Virus genome (UHGV): UHGV-0287696
DNA: 64,000 nt
Reading direction: 5' to 3' (one strand)
Origin: a virus
This document shows, piece by piece, positions 21,437 through 56,651 of the stretch. The notes beneath the pieces were generated by a model, which made no database searches, had not been told where the DNA came from, and saw nothing but the letters and a program-made list of their open reading frames with translations. How positions within the stretch are numbered: the first letter of the stretch is position 1; each line of letters opens with the position of its first letter. Position numbers and translations under genes: made by a program.

Positions 21437-22316
21437 TGTCAAAGTTTACGACGGTAAACTCTCGACGGTAACGCTTAATGCGATGCGCTTGGCTACCGCA
21501 TTAATTACCGGTGCTGACGTGCAATACCCGCAAAAATCCACACTGAATGAGTTTTATAAACTCATGCAAACACCAGTGCCGGACGGTAAAGCGCGTCCTC
21601 ATTTGCAGTACATGGCAATTGGCAACCGTGGCCATATGGTCGACACCTCTGATGTGGTGGCTGACGTTGTGCCTGTAGGTAAAGAACCTATTGCTTCCGG
21701 GATGTTTTCCCGCGTTCCGTTTGTCCTGCGTACAAAAGACAATGATCTGTCTGACGAACAACGTAAGAACTACGCTTTTCGTACTTTGGAAACGTTTAAC
21801 AAACGCGAATACTGGGCGTATTATTTAAAACGCATCGACATGCGCGCTGTAAAAACCACCGATTACGATATCAGGCGTGAGAACGGTGTTGAGACCGTCG
21901 AAGACTTTGTGTACACAGACACGGAATTAAACCCCGTACCGAAAGTATTGCCGGACTACGATTACGACGACGATGGCACCGTTGCAATCCCAGATGGTCG
22001 TTATGTGGAGTCAGGTGCTGACCTGGTTATTCCGTGGACAGACTTTGATGTTCAGGAATATATGAACGTAACGAGCATTATGCGTGGTAGCCCGCGTAGT
22101 TCAATTATCTCTGAACTGGCGCTCTGCTCAGGGTTAGACCAGGTCGCGTCCGGGGACTCTGCAACCGGGTCTAAATTTAGCTATAACGAGGCGATCGGTG
22201 TTCAGGCGTTGTACTACATTTCGATGTTTACCAACCTGGCACAGACGAATGACAAATTGTCTTTGACCATTCGTATCGGACAGCCTGCACCGTTCTTCCT
22301 GGGGACAGCTAACTGA
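21429..22316 (+). CDS. hypothetical protein
   Basis: 295-aa ORF overlapping the upstream stop by 8 nt. Confidence 0.5.
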   Translation: MSNVKVYDGKLSTVTLNAMRLATALITGADVQYPQKSTLNEFYKLMQTPVPDGKARPHLQYMAIGNRGHMVDTSDVVADVVPVGKEPIASGMFSRVPFVLRTKDNDLSDEQRKNYAFRTLETFNKREYWAYYLKRIDMRAVKTTDYDIRRENGVETVEDFVYTDTELNPVPKVLPDYDYDDDGTVAIPDGRYVESGADLVIPWTDFDVQEYMNVTSIMRGSPRSSIISELALCSGLDQVASGDSATGSKFSYNEAIGVQALYYISMFTNLAQTNDKLSLTIRIGQPAPFFLGTAN

Positions 22317-22960
22317 TGTTGATACCCGAGCCGAGACTTCCAGATAAGATGGTAAGAATCGCGGCAATAGACCCCGGTACGAGCCATCTTGGTATGGCAG
22401 TATTGGATTGGGAATACGGCAGCGATCAAGCCGAAGTGGTTTGGGCTGATACCATGCATGTATTAGACCCAACGCATCCAAATGCGTTTGCAGAGTGTGT
22501 CGGTAAGCGTGACGATCGTTTAGTTAAGCTCGAAGCTTGTTACCGTGAATTTCTTCGGATTGCCTGCCCAACTTTCGTTGCAACAGAGACACCGTTTATG
22601 CGGAGAGCAAAACTCTCCGCTTATGAATCTGGTGTCGAACTACAATTAATGCTGCGACGTACTTTGTGGGACGTTTACCCGGAGAAAATTTTACACGGCT
22701 TCAATCCTATCATTGTAAAATCATTCGTTGGGGTGGAAGCGAAGGGGACGGATAAAACCGATATGTTTCGGGCCGTGACCAAGCTCTACCGCGAACATGC
22801 TTTGTTTGATATTACAACGTTAGATGAGCACAGTATTGATGCTGTGGCGGTGGGAAATATTTTCGTCAGGGTAAATCTGTTAAACTTAAACAGCCTGCTA
22901 CCGCCTAAACAAAAGTCGACTAAGACCTCCAGGCGGAGAAGGCGTCGGAGAAAACGATAA
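22316..22960 (+). CDS. putative RuvC-like Holliday junction resolvase
   Basis: N-terminal RIAAIDPGTSHLGMAV matches the RuvC motif (I/L)GIDPG; later ...ETPFM... and DAVAVG acidic positions; C-terminal poly-Arg tail KTSRRRRRRRKR. Confidence 0.45.
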   Translation: MLIPEPRLPDKMVRIAAIDPGTSHLGMAVLDWEYGSDQAEVVWADTMHVLDPTHPNAFAECVGKRDDRLVKLEACYREFLRIACPTFVATETPFMRRAKLSAYESGVELQLMLRRTLWDVYPEKILHGFNPIIVKSFVGVEAKGTDKTDMFRAVTKLYREHALFDITTLDEHSIDAVAVGNIFVRVNLLNLNSLLPPKQKSTKTSRRRRRRRKR

Positions 22961-23627: not shown

Positions 23628-24281
23628 GTGGAACCATTACGCTTAATGACCAGAACGTTACTGATACCTATTCAGGAGCTGAAGGTTGGACCGTTGGTCA
23701 CCTCTAATGGGGAAATTGTTGATTTCGTTAAAGAGGAAAAAATTCTTACGGCGGCTTTTCAAGAGACGCTCCATCGCTATTATCGTGCAGTACCTTTATC
23801 CGGCAGTCTAGATTGTCCGGGTGTAGAGGGGAGTACGTCTGCGTTAATAGCGGAGCATTTAGAAAAGAAAGGGTTTGGGGTCGGGAAAGGACAGGTTTTT
23901 GTAGACACTGCCACACTGAACAAATACCAAAACGACCTAATGTTACAGATAAGGAGATTACTTGCCAGTTATGGTCTTTTCTCGATTAATTGTAAGTTTG
24001 ACGACGTTCGGATGTTAGACCACGGTTTTACTACCAGCCTTAAAATCTGTCGTGGTAAAAGATTCATACAGTTTACCTGGTGGGTGCCGTCCCTACGTGG
24101 TGAGAGAAAAACGGTGGAAGGGCTGTATGGTTGGGCTTTATGGGCCGAAGTTCCAGTAACGAAACTCGATGCGATTATTCCACAGCATCGAAACGTTCCA
24201 CTTAGCAGTTTATTTACTTCTGGTGGGAACACCACGTGGGATGAATTTGTTAAAAACGTTTTATCGATAGGGGAACAATAA
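23628..24281 (+). CDS. hypothetical protein
   Basis: GTG at 23628 with AAGGAG 7 nt upstream (track start 23601 is an earlier GTG). Confidence 0.45.
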   Translation: MEPLRLMTRTLLIPIQELKVGPLVTSNGEIVDFVKEEKILTAAFQETLHRYYRAVPLSGSLDCPGVEGSTSALIAEHLEKKGFGVGKGQVFVDTATLNKYQNDLMLQIRRLLASYGLFSINCKFDDVRMLDHGFTTSLKICRGKRFIQFTWWVPSLRGERKTVEGLYGWALWAEVPVTKLDAIIPQHRNVPLSSLFTSGGNTTWDEFVKNVLSIGEQ

Positions 24282-24757
24282 TGCAGCAGTTAGATATTAC
24301 CGAAGACAAAATTTCCGCTAAATTTCCTGAATTACGTGAATACGTCAAAGACTTAAATTCGATTCGGGAAACGCCAGTTAGAATCACGTTGGCCGTTGAA
24401 GACGATATTACACATGGGGTTGCAATCTGGGAGCCGGGGAATCTTATCTATCTGGTAGTGGCCGAAGGTTCTCGTCGTAGCGGCGTAGGTTCCTTTTTAC
24501 TGAAATACGTTCAACTTAATTCAGATCGTCAAATGGTGATGTGTCGTGTCCATCCCTCAAACATAGACGGGCTGTGTTTCTTTTCCAAAAAAGGCTTCCA
24601 AATAGACCGATGGTTTATTGCCAGTGACTCCCGTCGGTATTTTCGTATGACGAACAGTAACGTTGATTCGTCATACGCCCCGCCGGAAGAAGGATATTTG
24701 GTGGATTTTATTGAAAACACCCCCATCTTTCTCTCTGTTGCGGATAAGATTTATTAG
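24281..24757 (+). CDS. GNAT-family N-acetyltransferase
   Basis: Acetyl-CoA-binding motif A (R-x-x-G-x-G/A): VVAEGSRRSGVGSFLLKYV. Confidence 0.5.
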   Translation: MQQLDITEDKISAKFPELREYVKDLNSIRETPVRITLAVEDDITHGVAIWEPGNLIYLVVAEGSRRSGVGSFLLKYVQLNSDRQMVMCRVHPSNIDGLCFFSKKGFQIDRWFIASDSRRYFRMTNSNVDSSYAPPEEGYLVDFIENTPIFLSVADKIY

Positions 24758-25256: not shown

Positions 25257-25645
25257 AACGAACTGTCATTACCCTATTTCTAACGTTACTTTCATTTTCC
25301 GCGTTCGCGGAATTTAAACCGCACGATATTAGTCGTTTTGAACCTACAGTGCCGGGCGATAAACCCGTCGTTTTTAAATCTACCGACCAGCCAGTTGTTG
25401 CAGTTCAAAACGATGAGTTCGCCACGGTAAATTACGGTAAAACCGAATTGTGCCCGGCAGGCGGCTACTATTTGGTAAACATCAAACGGCGTACATATCA
25501 GTTTGTTGATCCGGGTAGTTGTTCTGCCAGTGTAAAGGTAACGTTAGAAACTGTGCCCTACGCAAATAAAAGTATTAATGTTCAACGTTTAACTTTCTAT
25601 GTTGGTGATGAGATCACCGCACGGTACCCATTATACGGGTATTAG
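25253..25645 (+). CDS. hypothetical exported protein (signal peptide)
   Basis: N-terminus MKRTVITLFLTLLSFSAFA-EF is a typical Sec signal with AxA cleavage site. Confidence 0.5.
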   Translation: MKRTVITLFLTLLSFSAFAEFKPHDISRFEPTVPGDKPVVFKSTDQPVVAVQNDEFATVNYGKTELCPAGGYYLVNIKRRTYQFVDPGSCSASVKVTLETVPYANKSINVQRLTFYVGDEITARYPLYGY

Positions 25646-25668
25646 TGATTAACCCCCGCGGAGTTTGT

Positions 25669-26307
25669 ATGTCTTTTGTAATTGATTTTGAAGTTGGTCA
25701 TAGACAGAACTTACTCAACCTCGTTAGTTACTGTAATAGCGGCAGTGTACGTAAAAAGCTTTCGGCTGAGAAAGTGGATGTTTCTTTAATAGGCGCACCC
25801 ACACCGGAAGGTCGGTATCGAGTAAAGTTAACTAACCGCAATGATATTAACGACGCGGTGATGATATCTTACACGAAACTTCAATTGAATGACTTTCTTG
25901 ATATTCCCGGTAAGTATCTGGATTGGTTCGATTTCGAAAACGGCCAACCTAAAAATTACGATAAATGGGCAGAGTCCGCGAAAGTGTCGGTGGAGAAGAT
26001 GTGTCAAGACCGTGGTATGGTTTTGTCACGTGCATGGGACACGGGCTCGCAGTGTCACGTTGAGTATGATGAGGATCTCGAGCGCTATGTGGTAATTTAC
26101 GAATGTGATTCGTTTATTTATAGCGCACGAAATCGATTTATTCTACCGCTTCATATTGGGCAAATTATTACGAATAAAACCCTTGACGGACTTAATTACA
26201 ACAACGAACTGAATAAACGTCCTTTAGGGGGCTTAGATGGTGAGTTGGACGTCTGGATGGGCAAAGCGTTACTCGAGACCGTCGTTTTAAGTGGTTTAGA
26301 AGCGTGA
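25669..26307 (+). CDS. hypothetical protein
   Basis: ATG at 25669 with GGAG upstream (track start 25645 is GTG). Confidence 0.45.
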   Translation: MSFVIDFEVGHRQNLLNLVSYCNSGSVRKKLSAEKVDVSLIGAPTPEGRYRVKLTNRNDINDAVMISYTKLQLNDFLDIPGKYLDWFDFENGQPKNYDKWAESAKVSVEKMCQDRGMVLSRAWDTGSQCHVEYDEDLERYVVIYECDSFIYSARNRFILPLHIGQIITNKTLDGLNYNNELNKRPLGGLDGELDVWMGKALLETVVLSGLEA

Positions 26308-26320
26308 TAACATCACCGAT

Positions 26321-26364
26321 AGGAGAGAACCTTTTCAGGGTTCTCTCCTGCTTTCTTTTTTTTC
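26321..26364 (+). terminator. intrinsic terminator
   Basis: aggagagaacc-ttttca-gggttctctcct followed by gctttctttttttt. Confidence 0.7.
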
Positions 26365-26393
26365 ACTTCACAACTTCAGTATGGAGGTGACAA

Positions 26394-26942
26394 ATGTATA
26401 AAATTGCTATTATTGGTTCTCGAGAAACGCCCGAAGACACGATGCATGAAATGTTGGATGTGTTGCAACGTGGGTTCAAAATTCTTCGTAGTAAACAGCA
26501 CAGTATCGAAACCCGGTCAGGGGGTTGTTACAAAGGGCCAGACCAATTACAGTTTATGTTAGCACGTACTGAACCAGGTCCACATATTTGTTATTTGCCT
26601 GACGAACGTAAGTTGTGGTTACGTAAGTTACATCCGAAAGTGGATTTTCGCGTTATTCCACAAGACGTCCGTTATCGTGGGATTGTGGCATCGCTTCACC
26701 CTAATCCTGATAAGCTATCGGAAATAGCTTGGGCGTTGCATGGACGAAACTTAAATATTGTATCCGGTGATTCTTTGGACGATCATGTAGACGCCGTCTA
26801 TTATTACGCCGAGCATGATAAAAAGGGAAATCCAAAAGGGGGTACGGCGATGGGTGTTCGCTACGCACAGTCACTGAACATCCCTTGCTATTATCATGTT
26901 ACGGATGCATCTAAGTGGTTAGAAGACCTACGCTTATTATGA
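26394..26942 (+). CDS. DprA/SLOG-like Rossmann-fold protein (putative)
   Basis: N-terminal MYKIAIIGSRETP resembles the (I/V)xGSR motif of DprA/Smf and SLOG/DUF2493 proteins; glycine-rich GNPKGGTAMGVRYA near the C-terminus; RBS GGAGGTGA. Confidence 0.35.
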   Translation: MYKIAIIGSRETPEDTMHEMLDVLQRGFKILRSKQHSIETRSGGCYKGPDQLQFMLARTEPGPHICYLPDERKLWLRKLHPKVDFRVIPQDVRYRGIVASLHPNPDKLSEIAWALHGRNLNIVSGDSLDDHVDAVYYYAEHDKKGNPKGGTAMGVRYAQSLNIPCYYHVTDASKWLEDLRLL

Positions 26943-26992
26943 AGTTAGTCAGGGCGGGCTTCTCCCCGCTTTAGCTTAAAATGGGGTAAAGG

Positions 26993-28126
26993 ATGTCAAC
27001 ATTAGATTCCGATTTAGAAGTCCTTTGCGATGACTACGATCGTTTGGTCGCGTTAGAATCGCTTAATGTTAAAGACAATTATCCGGCGGTTGTCGCTATT
27101 CGAAAACGGTGGGCTTTAGATGATGTCCACGTTGCGTTGGAGTCCGCAGCGATGATGGAACGCGCGCAATTTGTTGCAGACACCGAGCCTTACGCAGGGG
27201 TAGGTAAAGCGGTCGCACGCGCGACCGGCAGAGCGGTTAAGGGAGTTGGACGCGTTGCTGGAAAAGCAGCAGTGGCAGGAGCCAAAGCGTCTGGAAAATT
27301 CGCAGGTAAACATTCTAAGCAGCTGGCCTTACGGTTTATCGACTTCGCGGAAGCCGCCGGTAAAGAAGTTATTAATGAACTGAAAGAAGCGACGTCCAAA
27401 GCATCGTCGCTAGAGCGCAAGCTGCAGAAGTTAGAAGCACGTTTAAGTTTACTCGGTATCAAGGACACTTTAGAACCGGTTGACTGTGACACGGGAAGTT
27501 GGACAACCAAAGTTTGTTTAGAAGACAAGCCTAACGTAAAAGCATGTATTGAGTTCAGTAAGAACCTGAGTGCAATGGATGCGATGGTCAACGAGTATAC
27601 CGTTAAAACACGTACTTTAATCGGTAAGAGCAAGAAAGTTACCGAGAGCGGTTTGGAGAAAGTGGGCCGGTCAACGAACTGGGCGATTAAACGAAGCGCA
27701 GGGCTGTTCGGTATTATCGATCCGTTTAAAACGGTGAAGGCATATCCGTGGCCAGGTAACGTGGTGGTCGTTGAACACGACAGCGGTAAGATTGAGTGGG
27801 CGATTGCCCGCGATGGTGATTTTGGCCACACAATTAAATCTCTGAACTTGCATGAAATCGGTTCAGCGCTCGACGCCGTTAGAAACATTATCCGAGCGTT
27901 ACGTCAGCGTGGTGCGAAACGACGTAGTGTTGGGTATACAGGAATTTATGATGAAATTCAACGTATGCGTAAGGAACTTAAGTCGCTTGAAGGGCGGGAG
28001 TTACGCGACGCTACCGTACGTTATAAAAACGCACTGCGATTAGAAGATGCGTTTACTACCTCGTTAGTGCGCGTTGCGGAAGGGTTACTGGAATGGTGCA
28101 GGTTGTCACTGATTGAGGTTAAATAA
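26993..28126 (+). CDS. hypothetical protein with Gly/Ala/Lys-rich segment
   Basis: 377-aa ORF; VGKAVARATGRAVKGVGRVAGKAAVAGAKASGKFAGK. Confidence 0.5.
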   Translation: MSTLDSDLEVLCDDYDRLVALESLNVKDNYPAVVAIRKRWALDDVHVALESAAMMERAQFVADTEPYAGVGKAVARATGRAVKGVGRVAGKAAVAGAKASGKFAGKHSKQLALRFIDFAEAAGKEVINELKEATSKASSLERKLQKLEARLSLLGIKDTLEPVDCDTGSWTTKVCLEDKPNVKACIEFSKNLSAMDAMVNEYTVKTRTLIGKSKKVTESGLEKVGRSTNWAIKRSAGLFGIIDPFKTVKAYPWPGNVVVVEHDSGKIEWAIARDGDFGHTIKSLNLHEIGSALDAVRNIIRALRQRGAKRRSVGYTGIYDEIQRMRKELKSLEGRELRDATVRYKNALRLEDAFTTSLVRVAEGLLEWCRLSLIEVK

Positions 28127-28593
28127 TGCGTATCACTATTATTCTCAAACCCGACAGTAAATACGGAAAGTTATACGGTGACCAGGTACTCAAACTGCAC
28201 AACATGTTGTTCGCAGAAGAGAAAGTGCGTATTAGTCAGTTAACAGGACGTGACACGTTCAACCCAATTGAACACTTAGAAGAGATCTGGCCCCAAGATT
28301 ATCTCTGTGCGTGTGCCGTGGATGACAACGAACAACTTCTGGGAATTATGACCTTTTCAATGGGTTCTTGCTCGAAGGACACATTTGTTTATATTGGGAA
28401 CTACTACGTGATTCCCGAAGCGCGTTCTCAAGGGGTGGGTCGTGCGCTTATGGACAAAGTCCGTGAATATGGAAAGTCCAAAGGTTGTGGTTGGATGAGT
28501 TTGGATGTGTTAGACAACAACGTTAAAGCTATCTCCTTGTATGAGAAAATGGGATTCCGTACTGAATGCAGGGAAATGATAAAGGAAATCTAA
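28126..28593 (+). CDS. GNAT-family N-acetyltransferase
   Basis: Motif A YYVIPEARSQGVGRALMDKV and overall GNAT length (155 aa). Confidence 0.55.
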   Translation: MRITIILKPDSKYGKLYGDQVLKLHNMLFAEEKVRISQLTGRDTFNPIEHLEEIWPQDYLCACAVDDNEQLLGIMTFSMGSCSKDTFVYIGNYYVIPEARSQGVGRALMDKVREYGKSKGCGWMSLDVLDNNVKAISLYEKMGFRTECREMIKEI

Positions 28594-32131: not shown

Positions 32132-33130
32132 ATGGCTTTTATGAAGATTATAAAACATACCGCCACGGATTTAACAGTAGGTCGGTTAGCACGTAGAGAT
32201 ATTCGCAATCCTCAACTTCAGACATGTTTATCGGGCCCTAACGGTGCTGTGATTCGTGAGGCGTTGTGCAATAGTGAACTGAATACGTTCTCTTTACAAA
32301 AAGGAAAAACAATCCAAGGGTTTATCATCACAAAACACATTTACGGCGACCCAACGTTACACTGCTTGTATATGCATGAAATTGTACCGGGTTGTTTGAA
32401 CAAACTGAACCTGTTACTGGTACTCGACTATACCGGTTTTACGTATCTTAATCGAATCGCCAGTGGTGTAGAAGAAATCGCTGAGCTTAATGACTTAGGA
32501 TTTAGACACACCCACACTACGTATCGTTTAGGTACACGCTCGTTATTGGATATCGCTCTACCAACAAACGTGAAGAACATCTCCGGCGATTTTTATAAAG
32601 AGCTAACCGCTGCACAACGTGAACAGCTTATGTTGCTTTTGGGTACGAGTGTCGTTGAAAACATCAACGGTGACCCTGTAGGTCGCACACGACAAATCAT
32701 GCCACAAGTCGAAACGTTGGTGGAGTTAGTACGTCATGTCAACCACCACACCTACGTTTGGATGGATGGCAATGATATTGTGGGCGCGGTGCAAGTTAAA
32801 TTGCGTAATCTTAACGAGTGTGAATTAAAAGCCATTGCGGTAAGTGAGACACATCGGGGTCGTGGTATCGGACGGACTTTATTGTATCGTGCTCTACAAA
32901 TTGCATCGACAACAGCGGCACCATTAGAGATAGGGTGTTTCAATAACAACCCTGCATTCAGGCACCTGGCCGTCGAATTATTTAAATTTCGCCCCTACGA
33001 ATACGAACTTGTTTTAGTGCGTGACGAAAACGTCGTCAGTTGGGAGCGTCAGAAAAATCATGTCAGATTGGTGTTAGTCGACGAAGTGTCATCGTTACAA
33101 GGCGGATATAATGCGGAAACCGATAATTAA
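32132..33130 (+). CDS. protein with C-terminal GNAT acetyltransferase domain
   Basis: C-terminal motif A AVSETHRGRGIGRTLLYRAL; N-terminal ~200 aa unassigned. Confidence 0.5.
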   Translation: MAFMKIIKHTATDLTVGRLARRDIRNPQLQTCLSGPNGAVIREALCNSELNTFSLQKGKTIQGFIITKHIYGDPTLHCLYMHEIVPGCLNKLNLLLVLDYTGFTYLNRIASGVEEIAELNDLGFRHTHTTYRLGTRSLLDIALPTNVKNISGDFYKELTAAQREQLMLLLGTSVVENINGDPVGRTRQIMPQVETLVELVRHVNHHTYVWMDGNDIVGAVQVKLRNLNECELKAIAVSETHRGRGIGRTLLYRALQIASTTAAPLEIGCFNNNPAFRHLAVELFKFRPYEYELVLVRDENVVSWERQKNHVRLVLVDEVSSLQGGYNAETDN

Positions 33131-33926
33131 ATGGATGGGTGGGAAAACACGCGTTTTGGGTGAATTACAAAAGGTCTTACCTAAACGTACAACCTTTGTA
33201 GAACCGTTTGTGGGCGCAGGGTCTGTTTTCCTAAATACGAATTACAGCCGGTATATTCTATCGGATTCTAACCCCGATTTGATACGCTTACTTTGTGTTG
33301 CGCGTGAACAGCCTGAAGAACTGATCGCTGCGTCGCAACCGTTGTTCTTAGACGGTAATACCACTGTAAAGTATATGGAACGTCGTGAACTGTTTAATAG
33401 CGGTAAAACGATGTCCGAAGTTGAACGTGCTGCAATGTTTTTATACTTAATGCGTCACGGCTATAACGGGATGTGTCGCTATAACAGTAGTGGTGGATTC
33501 AATGTTCCGTTTGGACGTTACCCGAATGGCGTTTATTATCCATTAGAAGAAATTCGGGATTGGGCTAAACGTTGCGCAGAAGTTGAGTATCTGGAAATTG
33601 TTTGTGAGGACTTTCGTTCTGTATTAGCACGGACACCTGAAGATGCCGTGATTTATGCTGATCCTCCTTATATTCCGTTATCGGATACCGCGAAACACGC
33701 TCAATATCACCGTAAAGAATTCTCACAAACGGATCATCGGGAATTAGCCAAGTTACTACAGCAGCAGGTGGAACGTGGCAACAGCGTCGTGCTGTCAAAT
33801 GCAGACACCCTACTCACCCGAGAAATTTATTACGGTTTTGAGTGGCGCAGTATTGAGGTTGGTCGCTATATGGGTGCGTCTGGTGCCGCTCGGAAAACAG
33901 TGACTGAATTACTGGGAGTGCTCTAA
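33111..33926 (+). CDS. dam: DNA adenine methyltransferase (Dam family, N6-adenine)
   Basis: SAM-binding motif I FVEPFVGAGSV, catalytic DPPY (YADPPYIP), N-terminal IIKWMGGK typical of Dam; 271 aa. Confidence 0.8.
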   Translation: MRKPIIKWMGGKTRVLGELQKVLPKRTTFVEPFVGAGSVFLNTNYSRYILSDSNPDLIRLLCVAREQPEELIAASQPLFLDGNTTVKYMERRELFNSGKTMSEVERAAMFLYLMRHGYNGMCRYNSSGGFNVPFGRYPNGVYYPLEEIRDWAKRCAEVEYLEIVCEDFRSVLARTPEDAVIYADPPYIPLSDTAKHAQYHRKEFSQTDHRELAKLLQQQVERGNSVVLSNADTLLTREIYYGFEWRSIEVGRYMGASGAARKTVTELLGVL

Positions 33927-50143: not shown

Positions 50144-50995
50144 ATGCATCACCCGTATTATCTCCCGCACATTCTAGCAAATAGGGACCCCGCTTATTAT
50201 TACGGACAAACAGAAGGATCTTTTAATCGACTTTACATTCGTGAATTTAATACCGATGAAATGACGGACGACCAGTATCTGGAGTATCTAAAAGACCTTT
50301 ACGGTTTTTCAAAATCGAATAAAGATGGCTTTGGACGCCTCTCAGTCATTAGCGATGGTGAATATCGTCATTTAGCTAAGCCTGTTACGTACCCTATTAT
50401 TACACGCGCTTATACATCAGATAGGCAATATCTTGCTGAACTAAAAATTCCTCTACGGATAGACGGGCCCCAAATTAGCTGTATGGAGGTAGAAATTCAA
50501 CCGATTGCTGAAGACTATATTGAGGACTACTTCAAGAAAGCTAAAGACGTACTCGACGAGGGTTTAAGTTACTCTGAAGAAGGTACGATTTGTCTTCTCT
50601 CGCTACTCTCGAAGACTTATGTCACAGCAAATTTCCGTGTCTCTGATTCCAGTAACTACAATACACTTACTCCCTCTAAGACAAAACCGGTCTATTGGGA
50701 CGATCGGTTAGTCGACAGACACCGTTGGCTTACTATCTTAGATAAAGTAAAATTCGAACCCCCTAAACACACCGAAGACAATTTTACTTTATTACACAAC
50801 TTCGAACCGATCTATATCCCGACACATTTTGAACAAGCCTTACGTCATCGGTTGAAGTATGTGTTGGAATTACGGTACGGGAAGATAAATGGGCTAACCT
50901 GTTCTGGTGAATTGGGTGAAGAAGAACGCGAGAAAATAAAAATCGTGTTTGATAAGTTGGTTGAAGATTACATTAAGAAGGAAGGGCAATTATGA
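50144..50995 (+). CDS. hypothetical early protein
   Basis: 283-aa ORF, strong RBS AAAGGAGGA. Confidence 0.5.
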   Translation: MHHPYYLPHILANRDPAYYYGQTEGSFNRLYIREFNTDEMTDDQYLEYLKDLYGFSKSNKDGFGRLSVISDGEYRHLAKPVTYPIITRAYTSDRQYLAELKIPLRIDGPQISCMEVEIQPIAEDYIEDYFKKAKDVLDEGLSYSEEGTICLLSLLSKTYVTANFRVSDSSNYNTLTPSKTKPVYWDDRLVDRHRWLTILDKVKFEPPKHTEDNFTLLHNFEPIYIPTHFEQALRHRLKYVLELRYGKINGLTCSGELGEEEREKIKIVFDKLVEDYIKKEGQL

Positions 50996-54291: not shown

Positions 54292-55068
54292 ATGAAAACT
54301 GTTGAGTTTAAAAATAGCAGTCTTTGGGCATACTCGCACATCATTACGAGTTTCCTGAAAAACGTTACTTCGCACCTCGCTTATCAGTTTTGTGGAAATG
54401 AGCTCACTATCGGTGGTTTTAACGAGGAAGAATTAAAACGTGCAAAAGAGTTCATTGTCGATGTTCTTCATGGTGATGCGACGTGTTTAGTTGTGAGTTA
54501 CGTTGCTAAAGACAAAGGAAGATTAAACATCATGGGAATCTTCAGGACACTCTCCGAAAAAGTATACGAAGTTGAGAAGGTTAGTCATGGCGTTTATATT
54601 GTTTACTTTAAACGTTCGGCGGAGAAAAACGCTGATAAACTTCTGGAGTATTTCGACTGTAACCCAGGGGAAGGTATGGATGTTTATACGCTCGGTTATG
54701 ATGGGGTACCTCACCGGAATAACCTTATTCGTATTGACGAACCTTTTTCAGTCAATGATAACTCCACGCCTATAGAGTTGGTTCTGGTACACAAAGATCG
54801 ATTCGCGCATTACGATTCCGATACTATTCAACGTGTCCTGAACAACGTTAATATACAGTTTTCACAAACCGAGCACCTGGTACGTGCTTGTGTTAGGTCT
54901 AACGGCACAACATCTTTTTTCCTCGAACGTCAAATCGTTTGGCAGACTTATCTGGCTTTGATGGAAGAACTCGATAGGATCGAACCAGTTCAGGTTGGTA
55001 CAAATTGCTTATATTGGATAAAAACAAAGGGGTTCATGAATGAAAACACTCAATTCAGATTTGCGTGA
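54292..55068 (+). CDS. hypothetical protein
   Basis: 258-aa ORF, RBS AAAGGAAAA. Confidence 0.5.
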   Translation: MKTVEFKNSSLWAYSHIITSFLKNVTSHLAYQFCGNELTIGGFNEEELKRAKEFIVDVLHGDATCLVVSYVAKDKGRLNIMGIFRTLSEKVYEVEKVSHGVYIVYFKRSAEKNADKLLEYFDCNPGEGMDVYTLGYDGVPHRNNLIRIDEPFSVNDNSTPIELVLVHKDRFAHYDSDTIQRVLNNVNIQFSQTEHLVRACVRSNGTTSFFLERQIVWQTYLALMEELDRIEPVQVGTNCLYWIKTKGFMNENTQFRFA

Positions 55069-55490: not shown

Positions 55491-56651
55491 ATGTTTAATA
55501 TCGAAATTACCCCGCTCGTTAAAACTGAAATCCGTCCGGTTCCCGAAGCACAATTACTCGATCAACTTTATCGCATATTCCTGGATAAAGGTGTACATTT
55601 CCGTGTAGAACAAGTCAATGATGAAAGCATCGTGTTCTACTGGACTCACAGCAATGATTACCTTTGTGACACTATTGCGGCGGAAATCGGTGAGTTGCTC
55701 AACCCGGTAGCCGAGAACGCCAAGGTAAAAGCGACCGAGGCTGAGCAACCGAATGCCGAGGTTGAAAAACAACAGTGGGCTGAAACCAGCGCCGACAAAC
55801 CGCTCGTCTATCGGTATGATGCCGAAACGAACGAGAAAATTAAAGAAGCGTTAGAAGCTCTCTATCCTGATTATTTAACCGTCGGTCAACAATGCGACAC
55901 GTTAATTGTCTGGATGAATGATTTCGAACCTAAGCTCATTAAAGCCATACGCATCACTGTTGCACTGATCGTCAAAGACGCCGTTCGCCTTATTTCGTTT
56001 GGAGGTATCGGTCGACGTGACGCGGATGATTTCATGCGTGATGCCGTTCACGAACACAAGGAGAATATTCTTCGGTCTAATTATGTTGGTGACACTCTAA
56101 CTGTACTTGTTGTTAATGACCCTGTTGTTATTAATCAGCTACGCACCCGTATGGATGGGTTAGTAAAGAAAAATTCACGTAAATGCGCCGAAAGACAGGA
56201 TGACGTTAATTATACTGGCCCAAAGGCCAAGGTGATTAATGATACCTTGACAGCATTCTACTCTAGCAGGGTAGAAACTAAACTCGAGACCGAACGACTC
56301 ACCATTAAGTTCCAGTTAGACGACATTTCCCTGCAAGATGAAATTCATAGCCTCATTGATGGGTTTGTTAACAAGCGCCTACGTCTTCTAACGATCAATA
56401 CTATCGGGGAAGAAGATGCTGATCTGTTTATGGGTGAGATTCTTCACACGTTTCCTGAGAAAGTCCGTCAGTGGACTTACACAGACAATACACTTACCAT
56501 TCTACTCAACTATGAGCCTGGTCTTATTAAAAATTTAGAACGCCGTCTAGAGGATTTGTCGCTCAAACGTTTTCTTAAGGATGGCGCACGTTCAGTCCTT
56601 AAAGGATTATTTTCTGATTGCAACTGCCCTATTTGTCAGAAGCATCGCTAA
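55491..56651 (+). CDS. hypothetical protein with internal domain duplication
   Basis: Two copies of a ~70-aa unit (ISFGGIGRRDADDFMRDAVHEHKENILRSNYVGDTLTVLVVN vs LTINTIGEEDADLFMGEILHTFPEKVRQWTYTDNTLTILLNY). Confidence 0.5.
   Translation: MFNIEITPLVKTEIRPVPEAQLLDQLYRIFLDKGVHFRVEQVNDESIVFYWTHSNDYLCDTIAAEIGELLNPVAENAKVKATEAEQPNAEVEKQQWAETSADKPLVYRYDAETNEKIKEALEALYPDYLTVGQQCDTLIVWMNDFEPKLIKAIRITVALIVKDAVRLISFGGIGRRDADDFMRDAVHEHKENILRSNYVGDTLTVLVVNDPVVINQLRTRMDGLVKKNSRKCAERQDDVNYTGPKAKVINDTLTAFYSSRVETKLETERLTIKFQLDDISLQDEIHSLIDGFVNKRLRLLTINTIGEEDADLFMGEILHTFPEKVRQWTYTDNTLTILLNYEPGLIKNLERRLEDLSLKRFLKDGARSVLKGLFSDCNCPICQKHR

Follow-up and report, generated by a model that had tools for sequence, protein, structure and literature searches.

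The 64,000-nucleotide stretch analysed here (the window, from UHGV virus genome UHGV-0287696) comes from an SPN3US-like jumbo phage of the nucleus-forming kind, and our subject is one small gene within it. An earlier note on this DNA, made from the letters and a list of reading frames, had described a DprA/SLOG-like Rossmann protein at 26394-26942. The open reading frame (ORF) lies at exactly that position on the plus strand and runs from ATG to stop over 182 codons plus the stop codon. The two motifs that had been picked out are also present: the product begins MYKIAIIGSRETP, and GGTAMGVRYA lies within residues 148-158 (KGGTAMGVRYA), the columns concerned being invariant among homologues. The gene itself can be listed as follows:

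26394..26942, plus strand: coding sequence (182 amino acids plus stop) of a protein that is very probably a DprA-clade single-domain SLOG Rossmann protein, orthologous to SPN3US gp92.

The ORF is real, far beyond chance, because it has homologues in hundreds of phage records, a 99%-identical syntenic copy and invariant motif columns. It matched PHROG 768, 'DprA-like DNA recombination-mediator protein', with E=1.7e-43, residues 1-172 aligning to profile positions 3-170 of 191, and is a full-length member of the group named DprA-like in PHROG 768 and RefSeq (SPN3US gp92, Phi92 gp047 and others). With the window protein as query, tblastn matched 248 phage records at E<=1e-5, a number that rose to 605 at E<=1e-3; Erwinia phage Asesino came first (61.5% identity, E=1e-72). 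The ORF is the syntenic orthologue of gp92 of Salmonella phage SPN3US (SPN3US_0092 / ACQ60_gp174), and the SPN3US and Asesino orthologues are 57-61% identical to it. Orthologues of the SPN3US group are about 15 residues longer than the window protein, owing to an insertion after helix 2 that is missing in the window (alignment A1). A 191-kb metagenomic contig encodes a protein 99% identical to it, with the genes around it ordered alike; the window protein itself was absent from the records in an exact-sequence lookup, and the 99% cluster representative was used instead. No close DNA relative appeared when the 6 kb around the ORF were compared by megablast with GenBank phages, and a literature search on SPN3US gp92 gave nothing relevant. 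Besides SPN3US-like jumbo phages, the tblastn matches included T4-like phages (Acinetobacter, Krischvirus), rV5/Phi92-like Vequintavirinae, Otagovirus-type Pseudomonas phages, the N4-like roseophage DSS3phi2, a Thermus phage and a cyanophage. The window protein is thus a new, moderately divergent (61% identity) member of a recognised and annotated phage family. As PHROG 768 proteins are already annotated in RefSeq phages and were discussed by Iyer et al. 2021, the finding is correct but ordinary.

The AlphaFold2 model, built from 16 homologues, had a mean predicted local distance difference test score (pLDDT) of 93.3 and a predicted template-modelling score (pTM) of 0.89. A single Rossmann-type domain of alternating strands and helices fills all 182 residues. 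The structural matches of this model were members of the SLOG superfamily, whose three-layer Rossmann-like fold it shares, with DprA on top; Foldseek ranked Helicobacter pylori DprA first (E=2.6e-4). Among viral models in BFVD, phage DprA-like proteins of the Phi92_gp047 type superposed with template-modelling (TM) scores of 0.7-0.8, followed by YspA/DUF2493 proteins at 0.4-0.5. The structure prediction that the earlier note had proposed as a check therefore came out in its favour, and the lack of any Rossmann-fold SLOG or DprA match, which it had named as fatal to its call, is the opposite of what we found.

Sequence profiles led to the same relative, DprA, which in bacteria takes up single-stranded DNA and passes it on to the recombinase. 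Searched against PDB sequences, a profile of 45 homologues matched DprA chains alone at E-values of 3e-4 to 5e-4, the next match being at 0.29; a narrow 16-sequence profile missed DprA in the PDB, and the 45-sequence profile was required. With hhalign, the alignment of 45 diverse homologues (alignment A2) matched Escherichia coli Smf with 80.6% probability (E=1.3e-5) over 144 columns, with all four conserved motifs in register, and an enterobacterial DprA set of low diversity brought no gain over the single Smf sequence in this profile comparison. Pfam gave no PF02481 match to the window protein even at E<=10, its best hit being a chance match to FOG1 (E=0.048). Searches of NCBIfam and single-sequence searches of the PDB likewise gave only chance matches (ETV6, SEL1), with those in NCBIfam below threshold. 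Of the sequence checks suggested earlier, the profile comparison was thus positive and the Pfam search negative. Bacterial DprA/Smf proteins (PF02481; 3MAJ, 3UQZ, 4LJK/4LJR) share just 13-20% sequence identity with the window protein, and the region from strand 3 to the RN helix differs from theirs: the window family has an LHPxP motif there and conserved H102 and H116. The statistics argue for homology to bona fide DprA with moderate, not overwhelming, support. Model, Foldseek, profile, hhalign and motifs agree, so that the original Rossmann call can be narrowed to the DprA branch: the window protein is very probably a DprA-clade SLOG domain.

Residue conservation was counted over the columns of alignment A2. 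Four conserved elements stand out:

26415..26423, plus strand: G8-S9-R10, DprA signature motif 1, in the loop after the first Rossmann strand (G8 and R10 in 45/45 homologues, S9 in 44/45).
26517..26543, plus strand: S42-G-G-C-Y-K-G-P-D50, glycine-rich loop after strand 2 (G43, G48 and D50 in 45/45).
26736..26750, plus strand: L115-H116-G117-R118-N119, DprA signature motif 2, in the predicted pocket helix (R118 and N119 in 45/45, H116 in 44/45, L115 in 40/45).
26835..26867, plus strand: K148-GGTAMGVRY-A158, second glycine-rich loop and helix (G149, G150, T151 and A158 in 45/45).

The ssDNA-binding (single-stranded DNA-binding) signatures of DprA are 'G-S/T/A-R' (G50-R52 of H. pylori DprA) and 'F/L/Y-x-x-R-N/D' (F140-N144), which have been contrasted with the motif 'PGGxGTxxE' of LOG proteins (Wang et al., PMC3950713). 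The window protein carries both. G8-S9-R10 aligned with the DprA GSR, R10 being the equivalent of H. pylori Arg52, which acts as a switch that opens the ssDNA pocket (PMC3950713). L115-N119 corresponds to F140-N144 of H. pylori DprA and F208-N212 of E. coli Smf; this mapping is transitive, from the window to Smf by hhalign and from Smf to H. pylori DprA by phmmer, with an offset of +4 in the PDB chain numbering allowed for. The loop S42-D50 aligned with SGLARGID (SGLAxGID) of DprA, and K148-A158 with KSGSMSSARLA of H. pylori DprA, the equivalent of the DprA SGSxxxAR. In that last alignment R156 equals R170, and G150 equals Gly164, which contacts the inserted base (PMC3950713). Hence R10, L115/R118/N119 and G150 match R52, F140/R143/N144 and G164 of H. 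pylori DprA. The equivalent residues in H. pylori DprA and in ShosA line a small basic pocket that takes in a single ssDNA base. In H. pylori DprA, R52E cuts ssDNA binding about 315-fold and R143E about 173-fold, and the double mutant R52E/R143E abolishes it (PMC3950713); ssDNA binding is also lost in the ShosA double mutant of the equivalent arginines, R139E/R234E. Features specific to the phage family are a YLP(D/W) strand, the LHPxP motif and the near-invariant H102 and H116.

Other SLOG proteins were less similar. LOG or 'lysine decarboxylase-like' phosphoribohydrolases (PF03641) have the catalytic PGGxGTxxE, which is absent from the window protein, and Pfam gave no match to them. The SLOG sensor of ThsA showed no sequence-level match. 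We found no SIR2, TIR or other effector partner fused or adjacent to the window protein, the neighbours checked being acetyltransferases, an internal head protein, a RuvC-like resolvase and thymidylate kinase; a defence system of Thoeris type is not what lies here. Viral YAcAr/YspA proteins (DUF2493, PF10686), including gp153 of Erwinia phage RAY, which is annotated 'DprA', are likewise small SLOG domains with GSR, SGxxxGxD and xxRN, and the window protein has no Pfam match to them. Against the YAcAr-type RAY gp153, hhalign gave a probability of 9% (E=3.5e-3, 34 columns), far weaker than the Smf match. YAcAr/YspA is therefore a separate family, sister to the phage DprA-like one, and the window protein is no SLOG protein of the LOG, YAcAr or Thoeris type. 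RAY gp153 had been considered as an orthologue of the window protein and was rejected, since it scores as YAcAr-type and has an extra N-terminal domain of about 150 residues. In this protein (L014:8630-9511) the YAcAr/DUF2493-type SLOG domain occupies residues ~160-290 behind the N-terminal domain, which looks NADAR-like by eye (…LSNMSYYDF…GVFASLEGFWYWL…) and for which Pfam gave no match.

The anti-phage system ShosTA has a DprA-like antitoxin, ShosA (8ZVA, 9VZO), which differs in carrying a SAM domain at its N-terminus and one more helix at its C-terminus. ShosA is encoded by the host and paired with a phosphoribosyltransferase (PRTase) toxin, ShosT, whereas the phage protein is without such a partner, and its neighbourhood contains no toxin gene.

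Elsewhere in the family the domain is fused to other enzymes. A Pfam scan of 49 multidomain members found a RecD/Pif1-type superfamily 1 (SF1) helicase in five, NADAR in five and an AlkB-like 2-oxoglutarate/Fe(II) (2OG-Fe(II)) oxygenase in three; the other partners were DUF4326 (two), DUF7831 (two), Macro (one) and ORF6N (one). The metagenomic protein P0090 combines AlkB-like, DprA-like and NADAR domains, P0092 (L011:6001-7089) and the metagenomic P0136 combine DprA-like with NADAR, and P0094, P0101 and P0065 combine it with a helicase. In P0169, also metagenomic, a weak Macro match lies beside the DprA-like domain. Giant proteins of 2,500-5,200 residues made up 11 of the 150 best representatives, with the domain near the C-terminus in most. 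One of 4,146 residues, from the crAss-like metagenomic contig Ga0496408_001495 (L003:8001-20441), matches the DprA-like profile over its last ~150 residues; Pfam found no domains in it, and its gene lies 3.8 kb and four genes downstream of the crAss-like phage muzzle gene. Polyvalent architectures joining AlkB, NADAR or Macro to a DprA-like domain were not described in the NADAR and DarT papers that we checked. Helicases, AlkB and NADAR/Macro act on single-stranded nucleic acid, and NADAR and Macro reverse the ADP-ribosylation of ssDNA by DarT. Because these partners act on single-stranded nucleic acid, the fusions fit a role of the domain as an ssDNA-recognition module, and they suggest that the module has been put to use again for bringing DNA-repair or anti-defence enzymes to ssDNA. 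Nothing else in the analysis is even mildly new apart from the fusions with NADAR, AlkB, Macro and helicases and the crAss-like giants, and these bear on the family rather than on the window locus.

How, then, might the stand-alone protein act? The explanation that we consider best, with a probability of about 0.5, is that it binds ssDNA through the GSR/LxxRN pocket and works in recombination or repair, probably by delivering ssDNA to a UvsX-like recombinase. Its parts differ in strength. From the conserved motifs, ssDNA binding is rather probable; a role as recombinase mediator is something we infer only tentatively. In the proposed mechanism the protein, probably a dimer as for other DprA domains, would bind phage ssDNA through the conserved pocket during replication, recombination or repair, would protect it and would then pass it to a recombinase. 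The likeliest partner would be the phage's own UvsX-like RecA homologue. The window protein would thereby fill the role of UvsY, the T4 mediator that this phage group is without, a role that Iyer et al. 2021 had already suggested for the DprA/Smf proteins of jumbo phages. Jumbo phages of groups 1 and 2 conserve a DprA/Smf protein and are without UvsY, and the DprA/Smf protein has been proposed as an additional ssDNA-binding protein (Iyer et al. 2021, PMC7824862). The phage nucleus of the chimallivirus RAY contains both UvsX and a SLOG protein that bears the annotation 'DprA' (PMC10299810); this protein is gp153, of the sister YAcAr family. No RecA/UvsX gene was found among the 20 ORFs of the window scanned against PHROG; tblastn with RAY UvsX located a uvsX-like gene in SPN3US-like relatives, about 100 kb from the DprA-like gene. 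A RuvC-like Holliday-junction resolvase is encoded at 22316-22960 on the plus strand (PHROG 159, E=4e-37), 3.4 kb upstream and on the same strand, and is the sole recombination gene near the DprA-like gene. The points that we counted for this explanation are the DprA-only profile matches in the PDB, the signature motifs, the fusions to DNA-acting enzymes, the presence of uvsX in relatives and the nearby resolvase.

Several findings weigh against it. That uvsX lies so far from the gene in SPN3US-like phages is one; in five other phage lineages, too, the neighbourhoods of the gene showed no shared link to recombination genes, and the recurrent neighbours there were early or nucleotide-metabolism genes (ribonucleotide reductase (RNR), MazG/nucleoside triphosphate pyrophosphatase (NTP-PPase), PhoH). 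Metagenomic contigs of distant family members showed no conserved functional partner in their neighbourhoods. The DprA-like gene is present, too, in T4-like phages with a UvsY of their own, and its product therefore cannot be just a stand-in for UvsY. The gathering threshold of PF02481 (29.6 bits) was not reached, relatives scoring 22.3 bits at most; for this reason the window protein is filed as 'DprA-like', that is, of the DprA clade, and not as a Pfam DprA member. It also lacks the N-terminal SAM and C-terminal winged-helix/DML1 domains that are usual in most DprA proteins, a loss that alone is not disqualifying because single-domain DprA proteins exist (Wang et al., PMC3950713). The near-invariant H102 and H116 have no DprA counterpart, and the median isoelectric point (pI) of the family is only 7.85. 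Finally, every functional step proposed for the phage DprA-like family is a deduction.

The alternative that survives best is an ssDNA guard in counter-defence, in which the domain would bind phage ssDNA or replication intermediates and either shield them from host toxins that modify or sense ssDNA or aid the repair of damage. DarT-type ADP-ribosyltransferases, alkylation and ShosTA would be the threats in question, and the protein, instead of taking part in ordinary recombination, might mimic the DprA-like antitoxin ShosA. We regard this as unlikely. The window protein stands alone, with no adjacent NADAR, Macro or AlkB gene; PADLOC reported no families at E<=10; and the SAM domain that ShosA needs for its stability is missing. 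In a nucleus-forming phage, as is generally known, the DNA is already out of reach of most cytoplasmic effectors. The fusions, for their part, show just a DNA-acting module, which a role in recombination or repair predicts equally well. A counter-defence role of the window protein is a minority possibility.

It appears improbable that the protein is instead a small-molecule SLOG protein, binding or hydrolysing a free nucleotide or an ADP-ribose-derived molecule as LOG or the ThsA sensor does, without binding DNA. It could then soak up or hydrolyse a defence signal, or be an enzyme of nucleotide metabolism. Where LOG proteins have their catalytic motif the window protein has KGGTAMGVRY, with no glutamate, and both fold and profile place it nearest to DprA proteins rather than to LOG or ThsA. 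Moreover, the conserved residues are exactly the ssDNA contacts of H. pylori DprA (PMC3950713), and the helicase fusions suit a DNA ligand better than a free nucleotide.

Quite improbable, in our estimate, is a further reading in which the domain would be a base-flipping ssDNA module in host conflict and not a recombination mediator. The stand-alone form would shield phage ssDNA from DarT-type ADP-ribosylation, alkylation or ShosTA, or sense these; alternatively, it could be a glycohydrolase acting on ADP-ribosylated bases through the family-specific invariant residues H102, H116 and D50. In fusions with NADAR, Macro, AlkB or helicases, the module would serve as the targeting subunit of polyvalent anti-defence proteins, including the cargo-like giants of crAss-like phages. 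That the ORF is spurious or a decayed, functionless pseudogene has a negligible chance: nothing but the missing Pfam and NCBIfam matches speaks for it, and the full length, the ribosome-binding site (RBS), the synteny, the hundreds of phages, the invariant motifs and the fold with a pLDDT of 93 refute it.

Upstream of the gene, two further features were read from the sequence:

26320..26364, plus strand: terminator-like hairpin with a 14-bp stem, a 3-nt loop and a T-rich tail, between the end of the upstream gene (26307) and the DprA-like gene.
26383..26387, plus strand: Shine-Dalgarno sequence GGAGG, 6 nt before the ATG.

The stem of the hairpin reads GGAGAGAACC...GGTTCTCTCC and is followed by a T-run, with TATG and the GGAGG RBS downstream. 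It is the sole terminator-like site in 25600-27400. It may close the upstream gene as a terminator; by count, such sites were not enriched over shuffles. With the hairpin and T-run directly upstream, and TATG and the RBS after them, the DprA-like gene may be the first of a separate transcription unit.

Gene for gene, the surroundings of the ORF match those in SPN3US: an acetyltransferase, three small genes, the ORF, an internal head protein and a second acetyltransferase, with thymidylate kinase further downstream in the window as in SPN3US. The two flanking GNAT acetyltransferase genes (24281-24757 and 28126-28593, both plus strand) form a duplication that is kept in SPN3US, and a third ORF at 32132-33130 (plus strand) has a weak acetyltransferase-related match (PHROG 8663/3810). 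Between its DprA-like and internal-head-protein genes SPN3US has gp93 (273 nt, L004:3622-3894); the window has a 50-nt gap (26943-26992) instead. A DNA methyltransferase is encoded at 33111-33926 (plus strand; PHROG 56, E=2.8e-85), a few kb downstream of the DprA-like locus. Farther along the plus strand, the ORFs at 50144-50995, 54292-55068 and 55491-56651 (283, 258 and 386 amino acids) had no PHROG match at E<=1e-3. They sit in a region with tail-fibre and virion structural genes and may be lineage-specific host-range or accessory genes.

The wider interest of the window protein lies in its family, which is known from over 600 phage records and some 1,900 cluster representatives and is predicted from sequence to keep, within a pared-down form of 180 residues, exactly the pocket with which DprA takes up ssDNA. 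If the protein is indeed a mediator of a UvsX-like recombinase, this would explain how recombinase filaments are nucleated without UvsY in nucleus-forming phages.
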